Source: a virus (taxonomy: Duplodnaviria; Heunggongvirae; Uroviricota; Caudoviricetes). From it: a stretch of 17,832 nucleotides of DNA. The stretch spans positions 1 to 17,832 of the IMG/VR virus record IMGVR_UViG_2537561685_000014, one strand, 5' to 3'. Positions within the stretch are counted from its first letter, which is position 1, and every line of letters begins with the position of its first letter. Shown here one piece after another: positions 1 to 7,877 of the stretch. The notes beneath the pieces are model-generated. The model worked only from the letters and a program-made list of their open reading frames with translations, did not search any database and was not told where the DNA came from. A program made the position numbers and the translations under genes.

Positions 1-91
1 ACAGCTTACGAACCTGAGGAGTAAGAGACCAGGCGGGGGAGAATCCCTCGCCACCTCTGATGTGTCAGGCATCCTCAACGCACCCGCACTT

Positions 92-118
92 AACCCGCTT
101 CGGCGGGTTTTGTTTTTT
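92..118 (+). terminator. Intrinsic terminator-like hairpin
   Basis: Stem CCCGC / GCGGG with loop TTCG, followed by TTTTGTTTTTT. It lies inside the 5' part of the 62..469 ORF, so it probably ends an upstream transcript. Confidence 0.5.
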
Positions 119-190
119 CCTAGCATTCTGGTTTACAATTCGCACGCCAGCCTGAACAACTGGCACCTGCTGCGCCAGCAGAGACAACCG

Positions 191-469
191 ATGGCGCACG
201 ATACCAAATTACACAATTCTGATGATTCTGCCGTCTTTGCCAGCAGGCACGGGCGGCGTTCCCGCACTTTCAAATCTGACTGGTTCCAGCATCCCCCATG
301 CACTGAAGAACAGGCCGAGTGGCTAATTCAGTGCTACCGCAGACACGGATACGAGATTAAGAAAGCCCTCAGCCTCGATTATCGTCACTGGATAATCTCC
401 GTCAGGCTTCCTTACTCCGAACGCCCACCGCGTCCGTCCCGCACATTCCAGCAACGCATCTGGAGGTAA
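191..469 (+). CDS. Hypothetical nin-region protein (92 aa)
   Basis: First ATG after the terminator hairpin, in the frame that stays open back to the window edge; stop 2 nt before the next gene. No family recognised. The start could instead be GTG 62 or lie upstream of the window. Confidence 0.4.
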   Translation: MAHDTKLHNSDDSAVFASRHGRRSRTFKSDWFQHPPCTEEQAEWLIQCYRRHGYEIKKALSLDYRHWIISVRLPYSERPPRPSRTFQQRIWR

Positions 470-470
470 C

Positions 471-1517
471 GTGCGGGTATTACTTCGACCTGTTCTGGTA
501 CCGGAACTCGGGCTGGTGATCGTTAAGCCGGGCCGGGAATCCATGCCGGTATTCCACAATACCCGGGTACTGGTGGAGCCGGAACCGAAAAGCATGCGTA
601 ATCTGCCGTCCGGGGTCGTTCCTGCCGTTCGCCAGCCGCTAGTGGAAGACAAAACATTGCTGCCGTTTTTCAGTAACGCACGGGTGATTCGTGCTGCTGG
701 TGGTGCTGGTGCATTGTCTGACTGGCTGTTGCGCCATATTAAATCCTGCCAGTGGCCTCATGGTGATTACCATCACAGCGAAACCGTCATACATCGTTAC
801 GGTGCTGGCGCGATGGTGTTGTGCTGGCACTGTGACAACCAGTTGCGTGACCAGTCCTCCGAATCACTTGAGCAACTTGCTCACCAAAACCTGTCAGCAT
901 GGATGATTGATGTCATGCGCCATGCAATGAATGGCACACAGGAGCGGGAATTATCGCTGGCTGAATTATCCTGGTGGGCTGTCTGCAATCAGGTGGCGGA
1001 CGCACTACCGGAGGTAGTATTACGTCGTTCTCTGGGGTTACGTGCGGAAAAAATTCGCTCGGTGTACCGCGAAAGCGACATCGTACCGGGAGAGCAGACC
1101 GCCACCAGCATACTGAAGCAGCGCACAAAAAATCTTGCGCCGCTGCCTCACGCCCACCAGCAAAATCCACCACAGGAAAAGACGGTGGTCAGCATTGCTG
1201 TTGATCCGGAGTCTCCGGAATCTTTCATGAAGCGACCTAAACGTCGCCGTTGGGTAAATGAGAAATATACGCGCTGGGTAAAGACACAGCCGTGTGCGTG
1301 TTGTGATAAGCCAGCCGACGATCCCCATCACCTGATTGGTCATGGTCAGGGCGGAATAGGGACAAAATCCCACGATATTTTCACGCTACCGCTGTGTCGG
1401 GAGCATCACAACGAGCTTCATGCGGATCCGCTGGCGTTCGAAGAAAAGCATGGTTCCCAGATTGATTTAATTTTTCGTTTTCTTGATCGCGCCTTTGCAA
1501 CCGGCGTGCTCGGGTAA
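471..1517 (+). CDS. DUF968/YdfU-like nin-region protein with C-terminal HNH-like Cys/His motif
   Basis: 348-aa ORF with GTG start 4 nt after GGAGG. C-terminus has PCACCDKP...DPHHLIGHGQGG...LPLCREHHNELH, an HNH/zinc-finger-like pattern that I recall from YdfU-type prophage proteins. Confidence 0.55.
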   Translation: MRVLLRPVLVPELGLVIVKPGRESMPVFHNTRVLVEPEPKSMRNLPSGVVPAVRQPLVEDKTLLPFFSNARVIRAAGGAGALSDWLLRHIKSCQWPHGDYHHSETVIHRYGAGAMVLCWHCDNQLRDQSSESLEQLAHQNLSAWMIDVMRHAMNGTQERELSLAELSWWAVCNQVADALPEVVLRRSLGLRAEKIRSVYRESDIVPGEQTATSILKQRTKNLAPLPHAHQQNPPQEKTVVSIAVDPESPESFMKRPKRRRWVNEKYTRWVKTQPCACCDKPADDPHHLIGHGQGGIGTKSHDIFTLPLCREHHNELHADPLAFEEKHGSQIDLIFRFLDRAFATGVLG

Positions 1518-1529
1518 AAGAGGTTACTG

Positions 1530-1901
1530 ATGCGTATAGAGTTTGTTTTGCCTTACCCGCCGACGGTGAACACCTACTGGCGTCGTCGTGGCAGCACATA
1601 TTTTGTATCAAAAGCCGGTGAGCGTTATCGCCGGGATGTGGCACTTATTGTCCGCCAGCAGCGGCTGAAATTAAACCTGTCCGGAAGGCTGGCAATAAAA
1701 ATTACTGCAGAGCCGCCGGATAAGCGCCGTCGGGACCTGGACAATATCCTGAAAGCACCGCTGGATGCACTGACGCATGCGGGGCTTCTCATAGACGACG
1801 AGCAGTTTGATGAAATCAATATTGTGCGCGGTAAGCTCGTTCCTGGTGGTCGGCTGGGCGTGAAGATTTGCGAAATTAGAGGTGATAGTAATGGGGCGTG
1901 A
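1530..1901 (+). CDS. rusA: Holliday-junction resolvase RusA
   Basis: 123 aa; ATG preceded by AGAGG. Motifs LPYPPTVNTYWRR, PDKRRRDLDNILKAPLDALTHAGLLIDDEQ and GGRL match the RusA pattern. Typical position just upstream of Q. Confidence 0.85.
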   Translation: MRIEFVLPYPPTVNTYWRRRGSTYFVSKAGERYRRDVALIVRQQRLKLNLSGRLAIKITAEPPDKRRRDLDNILKAPLDALTHAGLLIDDEQFDEINIVRGKLVPGGRLGVKICEIRGDSNGA

Positions 1902-2244
1902 TATGTATGAGGTTTTAGACCGCTGGGGGGCATGGGCTGCAGCAGAAAATAGTGGTGTCGATTGGCAACCGATAGCAGCGGGCTTCAAGGGGCTTTTACC
2001 TCATGGTAAAAAGTCACGGATTCAGTGTGATGATGACGAAGGCATTATGATAGACAGTTGTGTGGCTCGGTTGAGAAGGTATAAACCAGAGGAATATGAG
2101 CTCATCATAGCCCACTTTGTTATTGGTATCTCATTACGCACTATTGCCAAAAAGAGAAGGTGTTCAGATGGCACGATTAGAAAGGAATTACAAACTGCAA
2201 TTGGTTTTGTAGAGGGTATTACGAGCGTTATTGCATGTAAATAA
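1891..2244 (+). CDS. Late-gene antiterminator Q, small QuuD/phage-82-like type
   Basis: ATG 1891 preceded by AGAGGTGA and overlapping the rusA stop (the ORF track starts at GTG 1882). Motifs LDRWGAWAA and IAAGFKGL plus Cys-rich centre are typical of small Q antiterminators of defective lambdoid prophages. Confidence 0.75.
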   Translation: MGRDMYEVLDRWGAWAAAENSGVDWQPIAAGFKGLLPHGKKSRIQCDDDEGIMIDSCVARLRRYKPEEYELIIAHFVIGISLRTIAKKRRCSDGTIRKELQTAIGFVEGITSVIACK

Positions 2245-2247
2245 AAG

Positions 2248-2273
2248 CTAAAAGCCACCGTAGTGGCTTTTAG
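2248..2273. terminator. Bidirectional terminator-like hairpin between convergent genes
   Basis: Perfect 11-bp inverted repeat CTAAAAGCCAC / GTGGCTTTTAG with CGTA loop, T-rich on both strands; sits 4 nt after the Q stop. Confidence 0.6.
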
Positions 2274-2450
2274 CATTTTAGGATTGTGCAGGTAATGTTT
2301 TGTTCAATTTAGTAAAGAAGTTAGATTGGCTTGTTACAGTACGTCGACTCTTTCCAGAAGTACTCAACTGAAAGAAATCATTGATGCTTTTGGGTTGAGT
2401 TCTTTCATAGGCTTGCTTAAGTGACATGTGTTCCCCTTGTCTATTTGTTG

Positions 2451-3734
2451 CTATGACCGTGAAAAGTAGTGATGGTTCAGTTCTTTTGCAAAATAGTGCT
2501 TACGTTTAACCCAGATAAAACCATCAGCTTTAGAAATGATTGCAACATCTATGGGGCCTCCCACTGTTTCAGTATCATCGGAGACCTTGCGCTTGAAAGC
2601 GGTTAAATTTACTAATGATTCAGCCATATAAGCTAAATCTTGCTTGGGTAAAAACTCGATCATATTTACGACTTTGTCAACATAGTTTTCTCGGACAAAG
2701 CTATCAATACGCCCCTTGCAATCGGAAACAGTTCTGCGCACTACATCAACTATAGCATCCTTGGCTCCTTCGATATCTGAAGTGGGCACCAAATCTGTGA
2801 TTACTGAATCAATACCATCAAGTAAATCGCCGATAGAACGTTGATACTCAGCATGAAGATTTTGGATAAGATGTGAACTAGCTCCTTGCATGAAAGCAGA
2901 AACTTCATCCTCTTGCGCAAAGGGAGTCACGCCGCAATTAGGAGTGATGCAGCACTTGTCAGCATCTGTGGTTTTCCTTATTTTATCATTAAAGAAGCCA
3001 CAAACTTCATATGATAATACTTTAGGGTAATAGTCTTTATCGCCATAACCTGCAATCACAATCCCAGAGACGGAACCAATATCACTTTGCTTGCATATCA
3101 TAGCTGCCAATACATCACTAACTGCTTTTGTCAACTGTGGAGTTATGGATATTGAATCAAAGTCACTAAACTTTTGAGCAATGATGCGTTGGGTAATTGA
3201 TGAAGCATAGGTTTGGGCTGCTTGTTCATCATCCGGAGTAAAACCATCAAAGTAATTAATATCAGATAATTTTGTAAGGAGATCGTTGCAATAATTCGTG
3301 AGGTCTGTAACAAATTGATTCTTATCGAAGTTAACGAGATATGTTGGTTCGAGACCTTCAGAAAAAGCATCAACAAGCATGCTGAATACAATCTCGCTCA
3401 GGAAGTGATAAAGATGAGCCTCACGCATACCTGGTGTGATGATTGATTTAGCTGACTGTAGATAATTGAAGAAATCCTCAGCATATTCCTCCAAAGAGTC
3501 AAAACATTTAGAGCCTAAATCCTTTCTATAAGCCTTAATGATAAGCTCCCATGGAGCTGTGCAGAGATCACCAGTTCCATATACCATCAAACCTACAGGA
3601 TGATGTTTAGTGAGAGCGAAAAGCTTTTCAGCGCCATTATAGATTTTATGTTTGCCGCCTCCAGAAATCGTTACAGCTGAATCTGCGGCTAAAGCTACTG
3701 CGGTCTTGTTAAATACGGCTATTTCTGCTGTCAT
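2451..3734 (-). CDS. Proteasome-beta/HslV-like Ntn-hydrolase homolog with large extra regions (427 aa); function unknown
   Basis: Long minus-strand ORF, markedly AT-rich compared with its flanks. N-terminus MTAEIAVFNKTAVALAADSAVT fits the Thr1 ... Asp17 ... Lys33 layout of proteasome beta/HslV; VGLMVYGTGDL, IVIAGYGDKD and C-terminal TVGGPIDVAIISKADG resemble other conserved proteasome segments. Family assignment is by recalled motifs only. Confidence 0.6.
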   Translation of the reverse strand: MTAEIAVFNKTAVALAADSAVTISGGGKHKIYNGAEKLFALTKHHPVGLMVYGTGDLCTAPWELIIKAYRKDLGSKCFDSLEEYAEDFFNYLQSAKSIITPGMREAHLYHFLSEIVFSMLVDAFSEGLEPTYLVNFDKNQFVTDLTNYCNDLLTKLSDINYFDGFTPDDEQAAQTYASSITQRIIAQKFSDFDSISITPQLTKAVSDVLAAMICKQSDIGSVSGIVIAGYGDKDYYPKVLSYEVCGFFNDKIRKTTDADKCCITPNCGVTPFAQEDEVSAFMQGASSHLIQNLHAEYQRSIGDLLDGIDSVITDLVPTSDIEGAKDAIVDVVRRTVSDCKGRIDSFVRENYVDKVVNMIEFLPKQDLAYMAESLVNLTAFKRKVSDDTETVGGPIDVAIISKADGFIWVKRKHYFAKELNHHYFSRS

Positions 3735-3768
3735 TTTTTACATAGGGTTTATATGTTGTGTAATGAGA

Positions 3769-3797
3769 AAAATACAAAAAAATTAACGCGTACGCAA
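3769..3797 (-). promoter_or_regulatory. Candidate sigma70 promoter for the minus-strand gene
   Basis: On the minus strand: TTGCGT (3797..3792), 17-nt spacer, TATTTT (3774..3769), about 35 nt upstream of the ATG at 3734. Weak Shine-Dalgarno. Confidence 0.3.
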
Positions 3798-3842
3798 AAA
3801 TTCTTGTAATCTGTTAAGAGTGGTTACTTCGCCACACAGCTT

Positions 3843-3868
3843 AAACCCGCCGTCGAGCGGGTTTTTTT
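3843..3868 (+). terminator. Intrinsic terminator-like hairpin
   Basis: Stem AAACCCGC / GCGGGTTT with loop CGTCGA, then TTTTGT on the plus strand. No obvious plus-strand gene ends here; may insulate the island. Confidence 0.45.
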
Positions 3869-3990
3869 GTACCTGTAAACTTGGTGCAGTACGGTAAACA
3901 CGCTGGTGGTAGTGAATACTGACTTTTTATCTTGCTGGCTTTTTAGACAAGAGTTATTGGTATGTCATGTTAACCAGAAGGGAAAAAGAC

Positions 3991-4185
3991 ATGCTAAAAC
4001 AGCAAGATATGACAGAAACGGCGAAAGTTGTTTTTAATGAATTAAGCATCGAACCGGCAACAGTCGGGGAGATTGCACAAAACACATACCTTTCACGCGA
4101 ACGCTGTCAGTTAATACTGACCCAGTTGGTTATGGCGGGGCTGGCAGATTACCAGTTCGGCTGTTACAGACGTCTTCAGCAATGA
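3991..4185 (+). CDS. Small winged-helix/HTH DNA-binding protein (64 aa)
   Basis: ATG 3991 preceded by AAGGGA (the ORF track starts at an upstream ATG 3967). Segment ATVGEIAQNTYLSRERCQLILTQLVMAGL looks like a helix-turn-helix; overall layout resembles small FaeA/PapI-like regulators (tentative). Confidence 0.5.
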   Translation: MLKQQDMTETAKVVFNELSIEPATVGEIAQNTYLSRERCQLILTQLVMAGLADYQFGCYRRLQQ

Positions 4186-4334
4186 AGGGCTTTTAATTTG
4201 TGAAAATGGGCGGCTGGTGGGTGTTGGTAGCACCTGCCAGCCATTCGCTCATGCTTACTGGTCACAAGCGAACCACGGCCCACTGCTTTAGCGCAAAAGC
4301 AGAGTGAGCCTACCAGAGTTACGCTTACTGATCC

Positions 4335-5381
4335 ATGAAAAATACTGTAAAAATAAACAGTGTTGATTTAATCAACGCTGATTGCCTGCATTTTATTCAG
4401 TCCCTGCCTGATGATTCCATTGACCTGATTGTTACCGATCCGCCTTACTTCAAGGTGAAACCCAACGGTTGGGACAATCAGTGGAAAGGGGACGAAGATT
4501 ACCTTAAGTGGCTGGACCACTGTCTGGCCCAGTTCTGGCGGGTGTTGAAACCTGCCGGAAGCCTTTACCTGTTCTGTGGGCATCGCCTGGCATCTGATAT
4601 CGAAATCATGATGCGTGAACGCTTTAATGTGCTGAACCACATTATCTGGGCGAAGCCGTCCGGACGCTGGAACGGATGCAACAAGGAAAGCCTGCGGGCG
4701 TATTTCCCGGCAACAGAGCGCATTCTGTTTGCTGAACATTATCAGGGGCCATACCAGCCCAAAAATGACGGCTATGCGGCAAAGGGGCGCGAGCTTAAAC
4801 AGTGCGTCATGGCCCCGCTGATTTCTTACTTTCGTGATGCGCGAGAATCTCTGGGAATAACATCAAAACAGATAGCGGAAGCCACCGGAAAGAAAAACAT
4901 GGCGTCACACTGGTTTGGTGCCAGTCAGTGGCAGTTGCCGAACGAGGCTGATTACAAAAAACTTCAGGCGCTGTTCGCGCGTGTTGCAGCAGAAAAACAC
5001 CAGCGCGGGGAGCTGGAAAAGCCGCACCACCAGCTGGTCAGCACATACAGTGAACTGAACCGGCAATATGCCAGCCTGCAGGAGGAGTATAAATCCCTGC
5101 GGCGTTATTTTTCCGTATCAGCTGCTGTTCCGTATACGGATGTCTGGACGCACAAGCCTGTGCAGTATTATCCAGGCAAACATCCCTGTGAAAAACCGGC
5201 AGATATGTTGCGTCAGATAATTACTGCCAGCAGTCGCCCCGGTGATTTGGTCGCTGATTTTTTTATGGGGTCTGGCTCAACAATAAAAGCAGCACTTTCA
5301 CTGGGACGTCGCGCAATTGGCGTGGAACTGGAAGAAGAGAGATTTAATCAGACTGTAACTGAAATAAAAAATAATCGTTAA
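4335..5381 (+). CDS. DNA methyltransferase, beta-class (probably N6-adenine), orphan
   Basis: 348 aa. Catalytic motif IV LIVTDPPYF near the N-terminus and AdoMet motif I DFFMGSGST near the C-terminus; this IV-before-I order is typical of beta-class amino-methyltransferases. GC content is host-like, unlike the upstream AT-rich gene. Confidence 0.85.
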   Translation: MKNTVKINSVDLINADCLHFIQSLPDDSIDLIVTDPPYFKVKPNGWDNQWKGDEDYLKWLDHCLAQFWRVLKPAGSLYLFCGHRLASDIEIMMRERFNVLNHIIWAKPSGRWNGCNKESLRAYFPATERILFAEHYQGPYQPKNDGYAAKGRELKQCVMAPLISYFRDARESLGITSKQIAEATGKKNMASHWFGASQWQLPNEADYKKLQALFARVAAEKHQRGELEKPHHQLVSTYSELNRQYASLQEEYKSLRRYFSVSAAVPYTDVWTHKPVQYYPGKHPCEKPADMLRQIITASSRPGDLVADFFMGSGSTIKAALSLGRRAIGVELEEERFNQTVTEIKNNR

Positions 5382-5549
5382 ATATGCATTTAATAATTTC
5401 TTTATTTCATAAAAAATAAAAATATATACGTATATTTACAAATCTTGATATGATTTTCCATTGAAAAGAGAGCTGGCATTATTAATATCGGTACCCGGTT
5501 CCGAAGGGGATGTAAGCGCGGTCATTTTTATTTCTCTTGAGGAACCTGT

Positions 5550-5625
<76 letters not shown>

Positions 5626-5628
5626 TAT

Positions 5629-5703
<75 letters not shown>

Positions 5704-6061
5704 GAGAAACAAGCCTTATTGTATCGTTGCACTGGCGTATTTTTTATTGCGTGGGAGCAGGTTGTTTTTAAAAGGCATTCTGTTTTCTGGCTGTGATTTG
5801 AGGTCGGTTATAGCCACAGTGCTGTTTTTTACACCACTGGAATGGTGCATTATCGGTGGAAATTGAGCATTTCCTGACAGGGGCCGATGATGCACTATCC
5901 CGGTGTTGTAAATAACACTACAGAGGTGTTCCTCAGTGCGAGGGTGGTTTATGTAACTGTTTAGCGGGAAACCACAGTATTCATGGAGAGATGGATACTT
6001 CGGGGGGCACCCGACACCTCTGTTTTTCTACTACAAAAATGATTCATCTCTGGCATTTTTC

Positions 6062-6088
6062 AACCGCCGTTCCGGGCGGTTTTTTTTA
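6062..6088 (+). terminator. Intrinsic terminator
   Basis: Stem AACCGCC / GGCGGTT with loop GTTCCG, followed by a run of 8 T. Confidence 0.7.
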
Positions 6089-6410
6089 TTCTGAACTCAG
6101 AAAAGAATACACGGGCATTGATATTACCCGTGTGGCAAGGCCATGAAAGCCAATAATGAACTGAGCGCAAAAAAAGCGCGGCTGTCGGATTAACGCCGCG
6201 GGACAAAGTCCGTGAAGAAGAATAAGCATCAGTCTCCTCCAGGAGACGATTTGATATTACTAAGCTTTAAAAATGGTTTAAACCCCCGGATTAACCTTAA
6301 TTTCAGATAAGCTTTATTTCATTTTCTCCGAGCCACGTCAGGCGCATATCACATCAGATAACACCACATAAAAGGTATCTGCGGGTGCCTTTCACGGGGT
6401 GTTTTTTTAC

Positions 6411-6434
6411 GGGCCGCTGGTGGCCCTTTTTTAT
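6411..6434 (+). terminator. Intrinsic terminator, tR'-like, just upstream of the lysis genes
   Basis: Stem GGGCC / GGCCC with loop GCTGGT, then TTTTTTATTT; 17 nt before the first lysis-gene start codon. Position is analogous to lambda tR' ahead of S. Confidence 0.7.
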
Positions 6435-6450
6435 TTACAGGAGAAAAAGT

Positions 6451-6843
6451 ATGTCTGAACCCTTATCCGGTTCCGGCACGGCTGCAGCGCTCGGCGGGGC
6501 GACGGTGTACGGGCTGTTTACCGGAACGGATTTCGGGATTGTGTTTGGTGCCTTTGCCGGGGCGTTATTTGTGGCAACGATGCCGCAGGCGCTTTCAGCC
6601 TGGCGTGTGGCGGCACATTTTCTGGTGTCGTTCATTGTTGGTGTGCTGGGGGCAGAAGTTCTGGCATCCTGGCTGGTAAAGCATACAGAGTTTGACGGTG
6701 CACCTGTCGACGCATTGTGTGCAGTACTGGTGTCAGTGGTGTCGGTGAAGATTCTCTCGTTCATCCACCAGCAGGATATTGCATCACTGGTGTCCGGTCT
6801 GTTCTCCCGTCTGCGGGGCGGAGGAGGCGGCAATGTTAAGTAA
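6451..6843 (+). CDS. Lysis-cassette membrane protein, putative holin (130 aa)
   Basis: ATG 6451 preceded by AGGAG (the ORF track starts at GTG 6385, which would run through the terminator). Three to four hydrophobic helices, Gly-rich charged C-terminus; first gene of the lysis cassette. Confidence 0.5.
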   Translation: MSEPLSGSGTAAALGGATVYGLFTGTDFGIVFGAFAGALFVATMPQALSAWRVAAHFLVSFIVGVLGAEVLASWLVKHTEFDGAPVDALCAVLVSVVSVKILSFIHQQDIASLVSGLFSRLRGGGGGNVK

Positions 6844-7111
6844 CCTTCCCGGATTGCTGAATGTGGCGTTATGCACGGTTATCGTGCTGACGCTCTTTTT
6901 TTATCGTCGTCGTGATTCCAGACATAAACCGTTGATGTCATGGCTGGCCTGGCTGCTGATGCTGCTTTATGCCTTTGCACCACTCAGTTATCTGTGCGGT
7001 CGCCCGTTAGCGGCGAACTGGCTGGCGGTGGGGCTTAATCTGCTGTTCTGCGTGTTGGTTATTCGCGCACGCGGGAACGTTTCAAAAATCTTTGTATTAC
7101 GAAGACGCTGA
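6833..7111 (+). CDS. Lysis-cassette membrane protein, putative second holin/antiholin (92 aa)
   Basis: ATG 6833 preceded by GGAGGAGG, overlapping the end of the previous gene (the ORF track starts at an upstream ATG 6779); three predicted transmembrane segments; stop immediately before the endolysin ATG. Confidence 0.45.
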   Translation: MLSNLPGLLNVALCTVIVLTLFFYRRRDSRHKPLMSWLAWLLMLLYAFAPLSYLCGRPLAANWLAVGLNLLFCVLVIRARGNVSKIFVLRRR

Positions 7112-7112
7112 T

Positions 7113-7658
7113 ATGAAGTCGAAAGATGAAATTTTTGACGAAGTTCTGGGAAAAGAGGGCGGTTACGTCAATCACCCGGATGATAAAGGCGGACCGACAA
7201 AATGGGGTATTACGGAAAAAGTCGCCCGCGCTCACGGATATCAGGGCGATATGCGTGACCTGACACGCGAACAGGCACTGGAAATCCTTGAGGCGGATTA
7301 CTGGTTCGGACCACGCTTTGATCAGGTGGCCGCATTATCCTCTGATATTGCTGCAGAGTTGTGTGATACCGGTGTGAATATGGGGCCGTCCGTAGCATCG
7401 AAAATGCTCCAACGCTGGCTGAACGTTTTCAACCTGCAAGGCAAATTGTTCCCGGATATGGACGCAGACGGGCGTATCGGCCCCCGCACGATTAATGCAC
7501 TACGGACTTATCTGCAAAAACGCGGCAAAGACGGCGAACTGGTGATGCTGAAGGCGCTGAATTGCACGCAGGGCGACCGCTATCTGGAGCTGGCAGAAAA
7601 ACGCGAGGCCAACGAGTCGTTTGTCTACGGCTGGATGAAAGAGCGCGTAGCAGTTTAA
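7113..7658 (+). CDS. Endolysin, GH108-type lysozyme with peptidoglycan-binding domain
   Basis: Motif EGGYVNHPDDKGGPTKWGIT is the glycoside-hydrolase-108 N-terminal signature; C-terminal half resembles a PG_binding_3 domain. ATG 7113 directly follows the upstream stop (the ORF track starts at TTG 7092). No signal-anchor sequence. Confidence 0.8.
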   Translation: MKSKDEIFDEVLGKEGGYVNHPDDKGGPTKWGITEKVARAHGYQGDMRDLTREQALEILEADYWFGPRFDQVAALSSDIAAELCDTGVNMGPSVASKMLQRWLNVFNLQGKLFPDMDADGRIGPRTINALRTYLQKRGKDGELVMLKALNCTQGDRYLELAEKREANESFVYGWMKERVAV

Positions 7659-7752
7659 AAACTGACGCTGAAGTGCTGAACACCCTCAACTCACGCAGGC
7701 TCTTTTCTGGGGTTACGATGAGCGAAAGTAAGGGGTACCGCATCAGATAGCA

Positions 7753-7786
7753 AAAACCCCGGCTGCTGGAACAGTCCGGGGTTTTT
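7753..7786 (+). terminator. Terminator-like hairpin after the endolysin
   Basis: 10-bp stem AAAACCCCGG / CCGGGGTTTT with 13-nt loop, followed by TAGTTTT. Confidence 0.55.
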
Positions 7787-7877
7787 AGTTTTCACGTCAA
7801 AGAGGAAATTGTGAGTAGTGAGTACGGAGAAAATCCTCGTGGGAAAGTATAAAAGATTCTTTTTGAGGTTGTCCATT

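Follow-up and report, generated by a model that had tools for sequence, protein, structure and literature searches.

Proteases of the proteasome fold rank among the best studied. A computational survey by Fuchs, Alva and Lupas (Bioinformatics 2021; PMC8665760) found 22 new prokaryotic proteasome homologs of unknown function, and reported no conserved genomic context for proteasome homologs. One subfamily described there, PMI-4 (Proteasome homolog with Multiple Insertions, subfamily 4), is uncharacterised. It is the most abundant PMI subfamily, with 501 nr90 sequences in 2021, and ranges over Proteobacteria, Firmicutes, Actinobacteria, Bacteroidetes, PVC bacteria, Cyanobacteria, Euryarchaeota and phages (PMC8665760). 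The present work concerns a protein that probably belongs to this subfamily. It is encoded in a stretch of 17,832 nucleotides from a virus of the Caudoviricetes (IMG/VR record IMGVR_UViG_2537561685_000014, positions 1 to 17,832), and this whole stretch is called the window below. The enzyme gene lies on the minus strand of the window and is followed by a small, unannotated gene. The two genes form a mobile cassette, for which we tentatively propose an anti-phage role.

The other described relative of particular concern is Connectase (the MJ0548 family), a monomeric T1-family protein ligase; the natural target described for it is a key methanogenesis enzyme (PMC7980362). Connectase is without the helices H1/H2, carries a two-helix lid between strands S3 and S4, and is confined to methanogens (PMC8665760).

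The likeness of the window enzyme to PMI-4 extends over every feature described for the subfamily. PMI-4 has a proteasome-like core with Thr1/Asp17/Lys33 and no propeptide, and the enzyme here starts with Met-Thr. The long insertion after H1/H2 and the second insertion between H3 and H4 are both present in the window enzyme, and the broad distribution over bacterial phyla, Euryarchaeota and phages matches as well. The assignment of the enzyme family to PMI-4 is probable and not proven, because it rests on the published description and not on the sequence of the representative, HDY66466.1. An earlier reading of the window made from the letters alone (the sequence-only reading) had not recognised the gene; by its described features it falls into a family already catalogued, and the protein type is thus probably known, as a functionally blank subfamily of proteasome homologs. 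Two things appear to be new: the conserved small gene of the partner, missed by annotation pipelines and by the 2021 survey, and the systematic placement of the pair on mobile elements and at prophage accessory sites. This supplies a context for what is probably the largest proteasome-homolog subfamily of 2021, with the partner as a candidate substrate or regulator.

Fold and catalytic residues of the enzyme

The enzyme gene (nt 2451–3734, minus strand) encodes a 427-residue N-terminal-threonine hydrolase of the T1 family (proteasome-beta fold) with a Met-Thr start. The open reading frame (ORF) had been claimed at this position with the N-terminus MTAEIAVFNKTAVALAADSAVT, and was found exactly so. 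The assignment of a proteasome-beta fold was also right. The predicted structure is a four-layer alpha-beta-beta-alpha N-terminal nucleophile (Ntn) sandwich with proteasome strand order; in fold and catalytic residues it agrees with HslV, Anbu and BPH. The secondary-structure elements follow the order of a proteasome beta subunit, namely S1–S4, helices, four strands, helices, two strands and a C-terminal helix.

In the comparison by profile and structure, proposed earlier as a check, the Ntn fold and the strand order support the relationship; direct searches against sequence families yielded nothing of use. The 427-residue protein has no credible match in Pfam, NCBIfam or PADLOC, the Pfam search did not find PF00227 in it, phmmer against the PDB returned nothing, and the BFVD viral structure library holds no match. 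The hhalign comparison with E. coli HslV gave a probability of 0.3%, which is not significant. The only PHROGs match is phrog_5990, a family of unknown function. A HMMER profile alignment, weak at E ~1.4, has Thermoplasma acidophilum proteasome beta-subunit sequences as its three best-scoring matches; it pairs D17 with E17 and K36 with K33 of the T. acidophilum protein.

The catalytic layout proposed for the protein after removal of Met, with Thr1, Asp17 and the Lys of AEKLF, which is residue 36, is near-invariant in a set of 264 family members, which came from database searches and had not been pre-filtered for any motif. Thr1 and Lys36 are each found in 263 of the 264 and Asp17 in all. Ser18 and Asp395 are likewise present in 264/264 and Lys29 in 263/264, while Gly47 is kept in 251 (Ala in 12) and Glu388 in 250 (Asp in 13). 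The GGPxDVA block varies hardly at all. As judged from these alignments, the nucleophile and the triad are under strict selection. Natural variants of the block exist in metagenome-assembled genomes (MAGs) of Terriglobales and Verrucomicrobiia (L028 and L029), where VGGPIDV reads VALPIDV; this change of GG to AL could show what the two Gly residues near the active site do.

Thr is the second codon also in loci that start with GTG or TTG. The few N-terminal "extensions" are mis-called starts, because a Met or Leu start codon directly precedes TAEIA in all of them. There is no propeptide, and removal of Met would therefore expose the Thr1 nucleophile of this putative threonine peptidase. In E. 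coli HslV the Thr nucleophile is exposed by removal of the initiator Met. The catalytic pentad proposed for the proteasome includes Ser129 and Asp166, and Gly47 provides the oxyanion hole (PMC11947121). In the alignments, the equivalent of the proteasome GSG (Ser129) appears to be G228-[Y/F]229-G230, and E388 lies one residue off the D166-equivalent column.

The enzyme had been noted as more than twice the length of HslV, and two helical insertions account for the doubled length of 427 residues. The conserved core consists of residues 1–60, 215–285 and 360–426, and the acidic helical insertions span residues ~61–214 and 286–359. The H1/H2 pair (residues 61–93) forms the first helices after strand S4, extra helices follow at ~100–213, and the core strand resumes at residue 222. 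The second insertion is a long helical hairpin between H3 and H4. Median identity to the window protein is 0.58 in the core and 0.21 in the insertions, which are hypervariable. The enzyme has an isoelectric point (pI) of 5.0 and its insertions 4.4–4.7, complementary in charge to the window partner with a pI of 10.6. Fuchs et al. consider insertions of this kind incompatible with stacked proteasome rings (PMC8665760). The insertions would block ring stacking, and the enzyme is therefore expected to be ATP-independent and non-chambered, as a monomer or small oligomer.

The family is large. In a word-indexed search, more than 6,300 proteins of ~430 residues matched, all "hypothetical" and none with a Pfam domain. 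An exhaustive hidden Markov model (HMM) search detected 6,017 clusters at 50% identity with E<=1e-3, of which 3,327 reach E<=1e-30, and nearly all matches align from residue 1. When one genome per species was scanned, relatives 32–45% identical occurred in nearly every bacterial phylum and in archaea, including Methanosaeta, ANME-1, Methanophagales and others; the loci represent more than 20 phyla.

A conserved small gene follows the enzyme gene

The sequence-only reading had called the enzyme gene an orphan, which it is not. An unannotated partner ORF (nt 2278–2427, minus strand) starts 23 nt after the enzyme stop and encodes a basic protein of 49 residues, MSLKQAYERTQPKSINDFFQLSTSGKSRRTVTSQSNFFTKLNKTLPAQS. 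A Shine-Dalgarno-like sequence, AAGGGGAA (nt 2431–2438, minus strand), lies 3 nt upstream of its ATG, and orthologs carry AAGGAG, GGGGAG or GAGGAG at this site. RefSeq does not annotate the ORF; some Enterobacter and Pectobacterium assemblies call it as a gene. Thirteen distinct partner orthologs were found beside enzymes 60–100% identical to that of the window, in Enterobacter, Cronobacter, Pectobacterium and IMG/VR prophages. Every one of the 13 has a Shine-Dalgarno sequence, and M1, Q5, D17, F18, F37, F38 and L41 are invariant. The ratio of nonsynonymous to synonymous substitution rates (dN/dS) against the Enterobacter copy is 0.17, and the proportion of nonsynonymous differences is below that of synonymous ones (pN<pS) in six of six pairwise comparisons. 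By these measures, the window partner is conserved in Enterobacterales and under purifying selection. A terminator at nt 2247–2274 comes right after the partner stop and none is present between the two genes, which fits a single operon.

Across the family, 164 of the 166 parsed loci have a same-strand ORF of 30–110 residues that starts –70 to +60 nt from the enzyme stop. Geometry by itself counts for little: some ORF of 30–100 residues also follows 37% of other long ORFs. The case for a partner rests on sequence conservation and selection, not on the position of an ORF. For a partner HMM, 26 small ORFs from loci outside the Gammaproteobacteria served as training set. Run against all 27,410 six-frame segments (1.29 Mb) of the loci, it gave significant matches only directly downstream of the enzyme gene. 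Among loci not used for training, 15 matched at E 1e-17 to 1e-3, with the best true off-target match at E 0.66. The pan-phylum partner consensus has a basic N-terminus followed by [YF]x[ST]-h-x-[EDQ]-[FYW]-x-x-x-[YFL]-[FLY]-Pro, in which the Pro is nearly invariant, then a variable linker and an amphipathic LGxxLAxESLxxIxxxL helix. The small ORF overlaps the enzyme stop codon in 31 of 41 supported pairs, at a median offset of –10 nt, suggesting translational coupling.

Searched against a database of 5.8 billion proteins, the partner alignment matched 79 proteins of 44–119 residues, all "hypothetical" and without a Pfam domain; enzyme–partner fusions were absent among these 79. The reciprocal look-up found in three of three cases a gene for 419–431 residues, starting MTAEIA, located 2–21 nt upstream of the small gene. 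GenBank phage records also annotate a small coding sequence right after the enzyme gene. Small ORFs missed by the pipelines can thus hide the second half of a system.

Homology of the window-type partner to the pan-phylum partner is not claimed, since HMM, iterative search and hhalign were all non-significant; the iterative search with the window-type partner converges inside its own clade. Because the sequence link is not significant, the view that they are the same partner relies on an identical position and on similarity in size and charge, together with intermediates such as the small protein of a Providencia phage, which contains MAEWEQKFVEP. A third type of small ORF, ML[ST]KLKK...KKN[VF]C, occurs in a Bacteroidota subgroup (L025, L037, L060 and L070) and scores marginally against the pan-phylum HMM; the enzymes of this subgroup start with MTAVIGILNK instead of MTAEIA.

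The cassette as cargo of mobile elements

The enzyme gene had been suspected of being a moron, that is, a separately acquired gene, and it is a real one: the window pair is found as cargo of varied mobile elements. Its AT-richness is also as described, with a G+C content of 0.37–0.41 over nt ~2000–4000 and 0.52–0.55 in the flanks. DNA 99.4% identical to the window is present in prophages of enterotoxigenic E. coli. For strain TW10722, RefSeq places DUF968, RusA and the Q antiterminator on one strand, and the enzyme gene (WP_000123148.1, "hypothetical protein") next on the opposite strand. Beyond it lie a small ORF, a DNA methyltransferase, two tRNAs, holins, endolysin, iss and the terminase/head genes. 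This order agrees with the slot between Q and the lysis genes in which the gene had been placed.

Members of the family occur in 13 phage records, 154 IMG/VR contigs and 10 plasmids. In 20 distinct prophages the cassette and the Q antiterminator gene converge, and the alleles found there go down to 40% identity. In 11–14 prophages it comes immediately after a CI-like repressor gene and runs in its direction, opposite to YdaS, YdaT and O. Seven Streptococcus satellite phages end with the cassette. In Serratia a P4-like element carries it as cargo behind the primase, in Alteromonas it stands at the end of an integrase/GPA islet, and in Vibrio it adjoins a type I restriction-modification system. 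In a Candidatus Brocadiaceae MAG (L106, 1–4177) it follows directly after a SIR2 and HerA pair on the same strand, with a gap of ~170 nt. SIR2 and HerA match PADLOC at E 1e-56 and 8e-134 and are a recognised defence architecture. The enzyme–partner pair is consistently found on prophages, satellites, islands and plasmids, at sites where lysogens express protective genes.

The extent of the mobile unit can be read from the neighbours. The 150 upstream neighbours contain 175 Pfam families, none of them in more than three proteins. An all-versus-all BLAST of ORFs of at least 60 residues within 8 kb, over 86 loci, shows that the enzyme alone is shared, followed by integrases (7 loci) and HsdM (5 loci). 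The mobile unit is the two-gene cassette, because no other neighbour is common to more than 7 of the 86 loci. A conserved larger partner, be it an AAA+ protein, an alpha subunit or a third gene, was found neither in the Pfam and PADLOC census of the 150 upstream neighbours nor by BLAST in 86 and 126 loci.

The repressor site is a second recurrent place of insertion, with a layout of its own. In L159 (5398–7299) and ~11–14 other IMG/VR prophage loci, the cassette lies ~215 nt downstream of the CI-like helix-turn-helix repressor gene, the YdaS-like, YdaT-like and replication O genes are divergent, and a RecE-like exonuclease VIII gene is downstream, in a rexAB-like layout. In lambda, rexAB is located downstream of cI. 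Pectobacterium prophages (L101–L103, from 6584 onwards) harbor the cassette in the tail region, directly upstream of a protein of more than 2,500 residues with MuF_C/LPD domains that recalls polymorphic-toxin or ejection proteins.

The Q slot also carries other cargo. In an Stx2a phage (Stx2a_WGPS2, NC_049941.1; L191, 1758–3321) it holds a different antisense two-gene cassette, encoding proteins of 343 and 179 residues. Neither has a PADLOC match, and the 179-residue protein has a faint, sub-threshold match to a Pfam transmembrane region. Flanked by Q on one side and the small-ORF/methylase block on the other, this slot seems to be a place where uncharacterised two-gene cargo is exchanged.

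Proposed role of the cassette

We have high confidence in the structural and genetic parts, which are observed: the enzyme's fold and catalytic residues, the existence of the partner gene and the selection on it, the mobility of the pair and its insertion sites. We propose that window nt 2278–3734 (minus strand) is a self-contained, horizontally mobile two-gene operon and accessory cargo of a lambdoid prophage. The enzyme would be a peptidase or transpeptidase of narrow, sequence-specific action. The 49-residue basic partner would be made from the same mRNA, and in most other lineages it would be translationally coupled to the first gene. It may bind the acidic insertions or the active-site cleft, either as a gatekeeper (inhibitor) or as a dedicated substrate. 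The pair would be expressed from the prophage in the lysogen and protect it in the manner of abortive infection or superinfection exclusion. An infecting phage would upset the partner or the variable insertions, and this would release or redirect the threonine peptidase to cleave a host or phage target. Catalytic activity, enzyme–partner interaction, oligomeric state and expression in lysogens are predictions of this model. An anti-phage role of the pair is our leading reading, offered as tentative, and the whole chain, from two-gene peptidase module to anti-phage action, falls somewhat short of probable.

Several observations weigh against this proposal. No match was found in NCBIfam or Pfam, and PADLOC-DB v2.0.0 contains no family that matches either the enzyme or the small protein (0 for each). 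For the own promoter-like sequence credited to the enzyme gene no support was found: the AT-rich presumed promoter region upstream of the cassette (nt 3735–3842, minus strand) has no consensus sigma-70 match in a simple scan. The Ser129 position is apparently Tyr or Phe (GYG or GFG), and the chemistry may therefore differ from that of the proteasome. The window-type partner is not statistically linked to the pan-phylum partner (HMM E ~780, hhalign E 0.14). The alternative cargo of the Stx2a phage is no recognised defence system, and so does not strengthen the argument from a "defence hotspot". The restriction-modification, SIR2-HerA and mobile-element neighbours are individual, anecdotal cases. 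Finally, the pair of Providencia phage PSTRCR_117lys is sense-oriented between the methylase and the holin, with Q and the lysis genes, and this orientation would also fit a role in lytic growth.

Such a role is the basis of one alternative, in which the enzyme acts for the benefit of the phage during lytic growth or on induction; it might, for instance, degrade an immune or regulatory protein of the host, with the partner as adaptor or activator. The presence of the cassette on temperate phages and in 154 viral contigs agrees with it, as does the Providencia arrangement. In the window and in 20 other prophages, however, the cassette converges with Q and lies antisense to the late operon, and in 11–14 prophages it runs in the same direction as the repressor gene. 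Copies are common, too, where no phage is nearby, in chromosomal islands, plasmids, satellites and archaeal genomes. We consider a counter-defence enzyme of this kind rather unlikely. An addiction module resembling toxin-antitoxin (TA) pairs is unlikely too, in which the peptidase or the small protein would be toxic and neutralised by the other, stabilising prophages, satellites, islands and plasmids, with no anti-phage function of its own. The compact two-gene operon with a fast-evolving small component is what such a module would look like, it is found on plasmids and integrative elements, and its neighbours include HipA and a Panacea-domain antitoxin. Yet an Ntn hydrolase of 430 residues resembles no known TA component, no DNA-binding autoregulator domain was detected in either protein, and the recurrent lysogeny-expressed prophage sites and satellite ends are more typical of immunity cargo. 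A TA role would not, moreover, preclude a role in defence.

The remaining alternatives concern the chemistry and the cellular setting of the enzyme. As a Connectase-like ligase or transpeptidase, it would cut the partner, as substrate or tag, at the aromatic-aromatic-Pro motif and join it to another protein. This is improbable: H1/H2 are kept, the insertions lie after H1/H2 and between H3 and H4 and not between S3 and S4, the motif is not conserved in the window-type partner, and a conserved acceptor protein was not found nearby. The further step, that a ligase of this type tags targets with the small protein as a new mobile protein-tagging system, is likewise improbable. Least credible of all is a housekeeping or stress protease that works, like HslV or Anbu, with host chaperones or AAA+ unfoldases, its prophage location being incidental. 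The fold and catalytic residues are indeed common to HslV, Anbu and BPH. But an AAA+ (hslU-like) gene was found neither in the window neighbourhood nor among the conserved neighbours of the 86 loci; the distribution is patchy and resembles horizontal gene transfer, at 32–45% identity across phyla and archaea; the small partner is obligate and the location is on mobile elements; and the insertions probably preclude a gated chamber.

If the anti-phage proposal is true, the enzyme would be the first of the T1 family to act against phages and would bring threonine-protease chemistry into bacterial immunity, and the partner would explain how an enzyme without a propeptide is restrained. A search of the open-access and bioRxiv literature found nothing on a T1 or Ntn enzyme in anti-phage defence, on the function of PMI proteins in follow-up work, or on the RefSeq accession. 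It is possible, though less than probable, that the enzyme and its small partner represent a previously unrecognised, pan-prokaryotic immune module built on a proteasome-like threonine protease, with the insertions as sensor and the partner as gatekeeper or sacrificial substrate. In any case an uncharacterised family becomes a testable two-component system with a native E. coli prophage allele. Even if the anti-phage reading is wrong, the pair is a tractable entry to a family of at least 6,000 clusters.

Other features of the window

The hairpins reported to flank the enzyme gene are present at nt 2247–2274 and 3843–3864; the downstream one follows the 49-residue ORF and not the 427-residue ORF directly. 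It has a 12-bp GC-rich stem and then a T-run, lies between the converging Q gene and the cassette, and according to the scan is a terminator for the minus strand only. The hairpin at nt 3843–3864 (plus strand) is terminator-like, belongs to the phage backbone; the inserted cassette has its right edge there. To the right of the cassette, from ~3768–3844 on, the sequence is again homologous to SfV and other lambdoid phages, and SfV has an annotated terminator inside the segment common with the window (nt 3844–4400).

Just right of the cassette is an ORF of 72 residues (nt 3967–4185, plus strand), conserved in SfV, phiP27 and Stx phages. It has weak winged-helix matches (DprA_WH, TrmB), and one RefSeq record names it a TrmB-family regulator. 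Two phage tRNA genes, tRNA-Thr (TGT) at nt 5550–5625 and tRNA-Gly (TCC) at nt 5629–5703, both on the plus strand, are located between the methyltransferase and the lysis genes, the site where Stx phages have ileZ/argN/argO and stx. Downstream of the lysis genes, at nt ~8346–8639 on the minus strand, is a second, unrelated antisense moron, annotated in RefSeq as "increased serum survival lipoprotein Iss". Six near-identical E. coli prophages (genomes H26–H31, e.g. NZ_LR883006.1 2362718–2383011) carry the IS66-family element ISCro1, ~2.7 kb, inside the stretch equivalent to the window. Their match to the window is in two pieces over 20.3 kb instead of 17.6 kb.

Comparison with known systems

Compared with the proteasome beta subunit (e.g. 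PsmB of Thermoplasma acidophilum) and Anbu, the window enzyme has 427 residues against ~200, through insertions of ~150 and ~75 residues. It is without a propeptide and without an alpha subunit, it has GYG or GFG in place of GSG (Ser129), and it resides on mobile elements with a small basic partner. HslV (ClpQ) is a compact subunit of ~175 residues without insertions, whereas the window enzyme carries two, which sit where the ring contacts would be. Unlike Connectase, the window enzyme keeps H1/H2 after S4, its S3–S4 link (residues 40–45) is short, and the insertions are elsewhere. The natural target described for Connectase is a methanogenesis enzyme and not a dedicated small partner.

The prophage exclusion genes provide a comparison of another kind. 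Lambda rexAB and the e14 Lit protease are lysogeny-expressed, and Lit is a prophage-encoded protease that serves as an abortive-infection effector. The likeness lies in accessory genes at the same kinds of prophage sites and is a functional analogy only, with no relationship of sequence or fold to the window enzyme.

PMI-4 remains the closest described group. The family described here differs from the published account in having a conserved downstream small gene and a context of mobile elements and prophage morons, and ~6,000 clusters at 50% identity are detectable now, against the 501 nr90 sequences of 2021.

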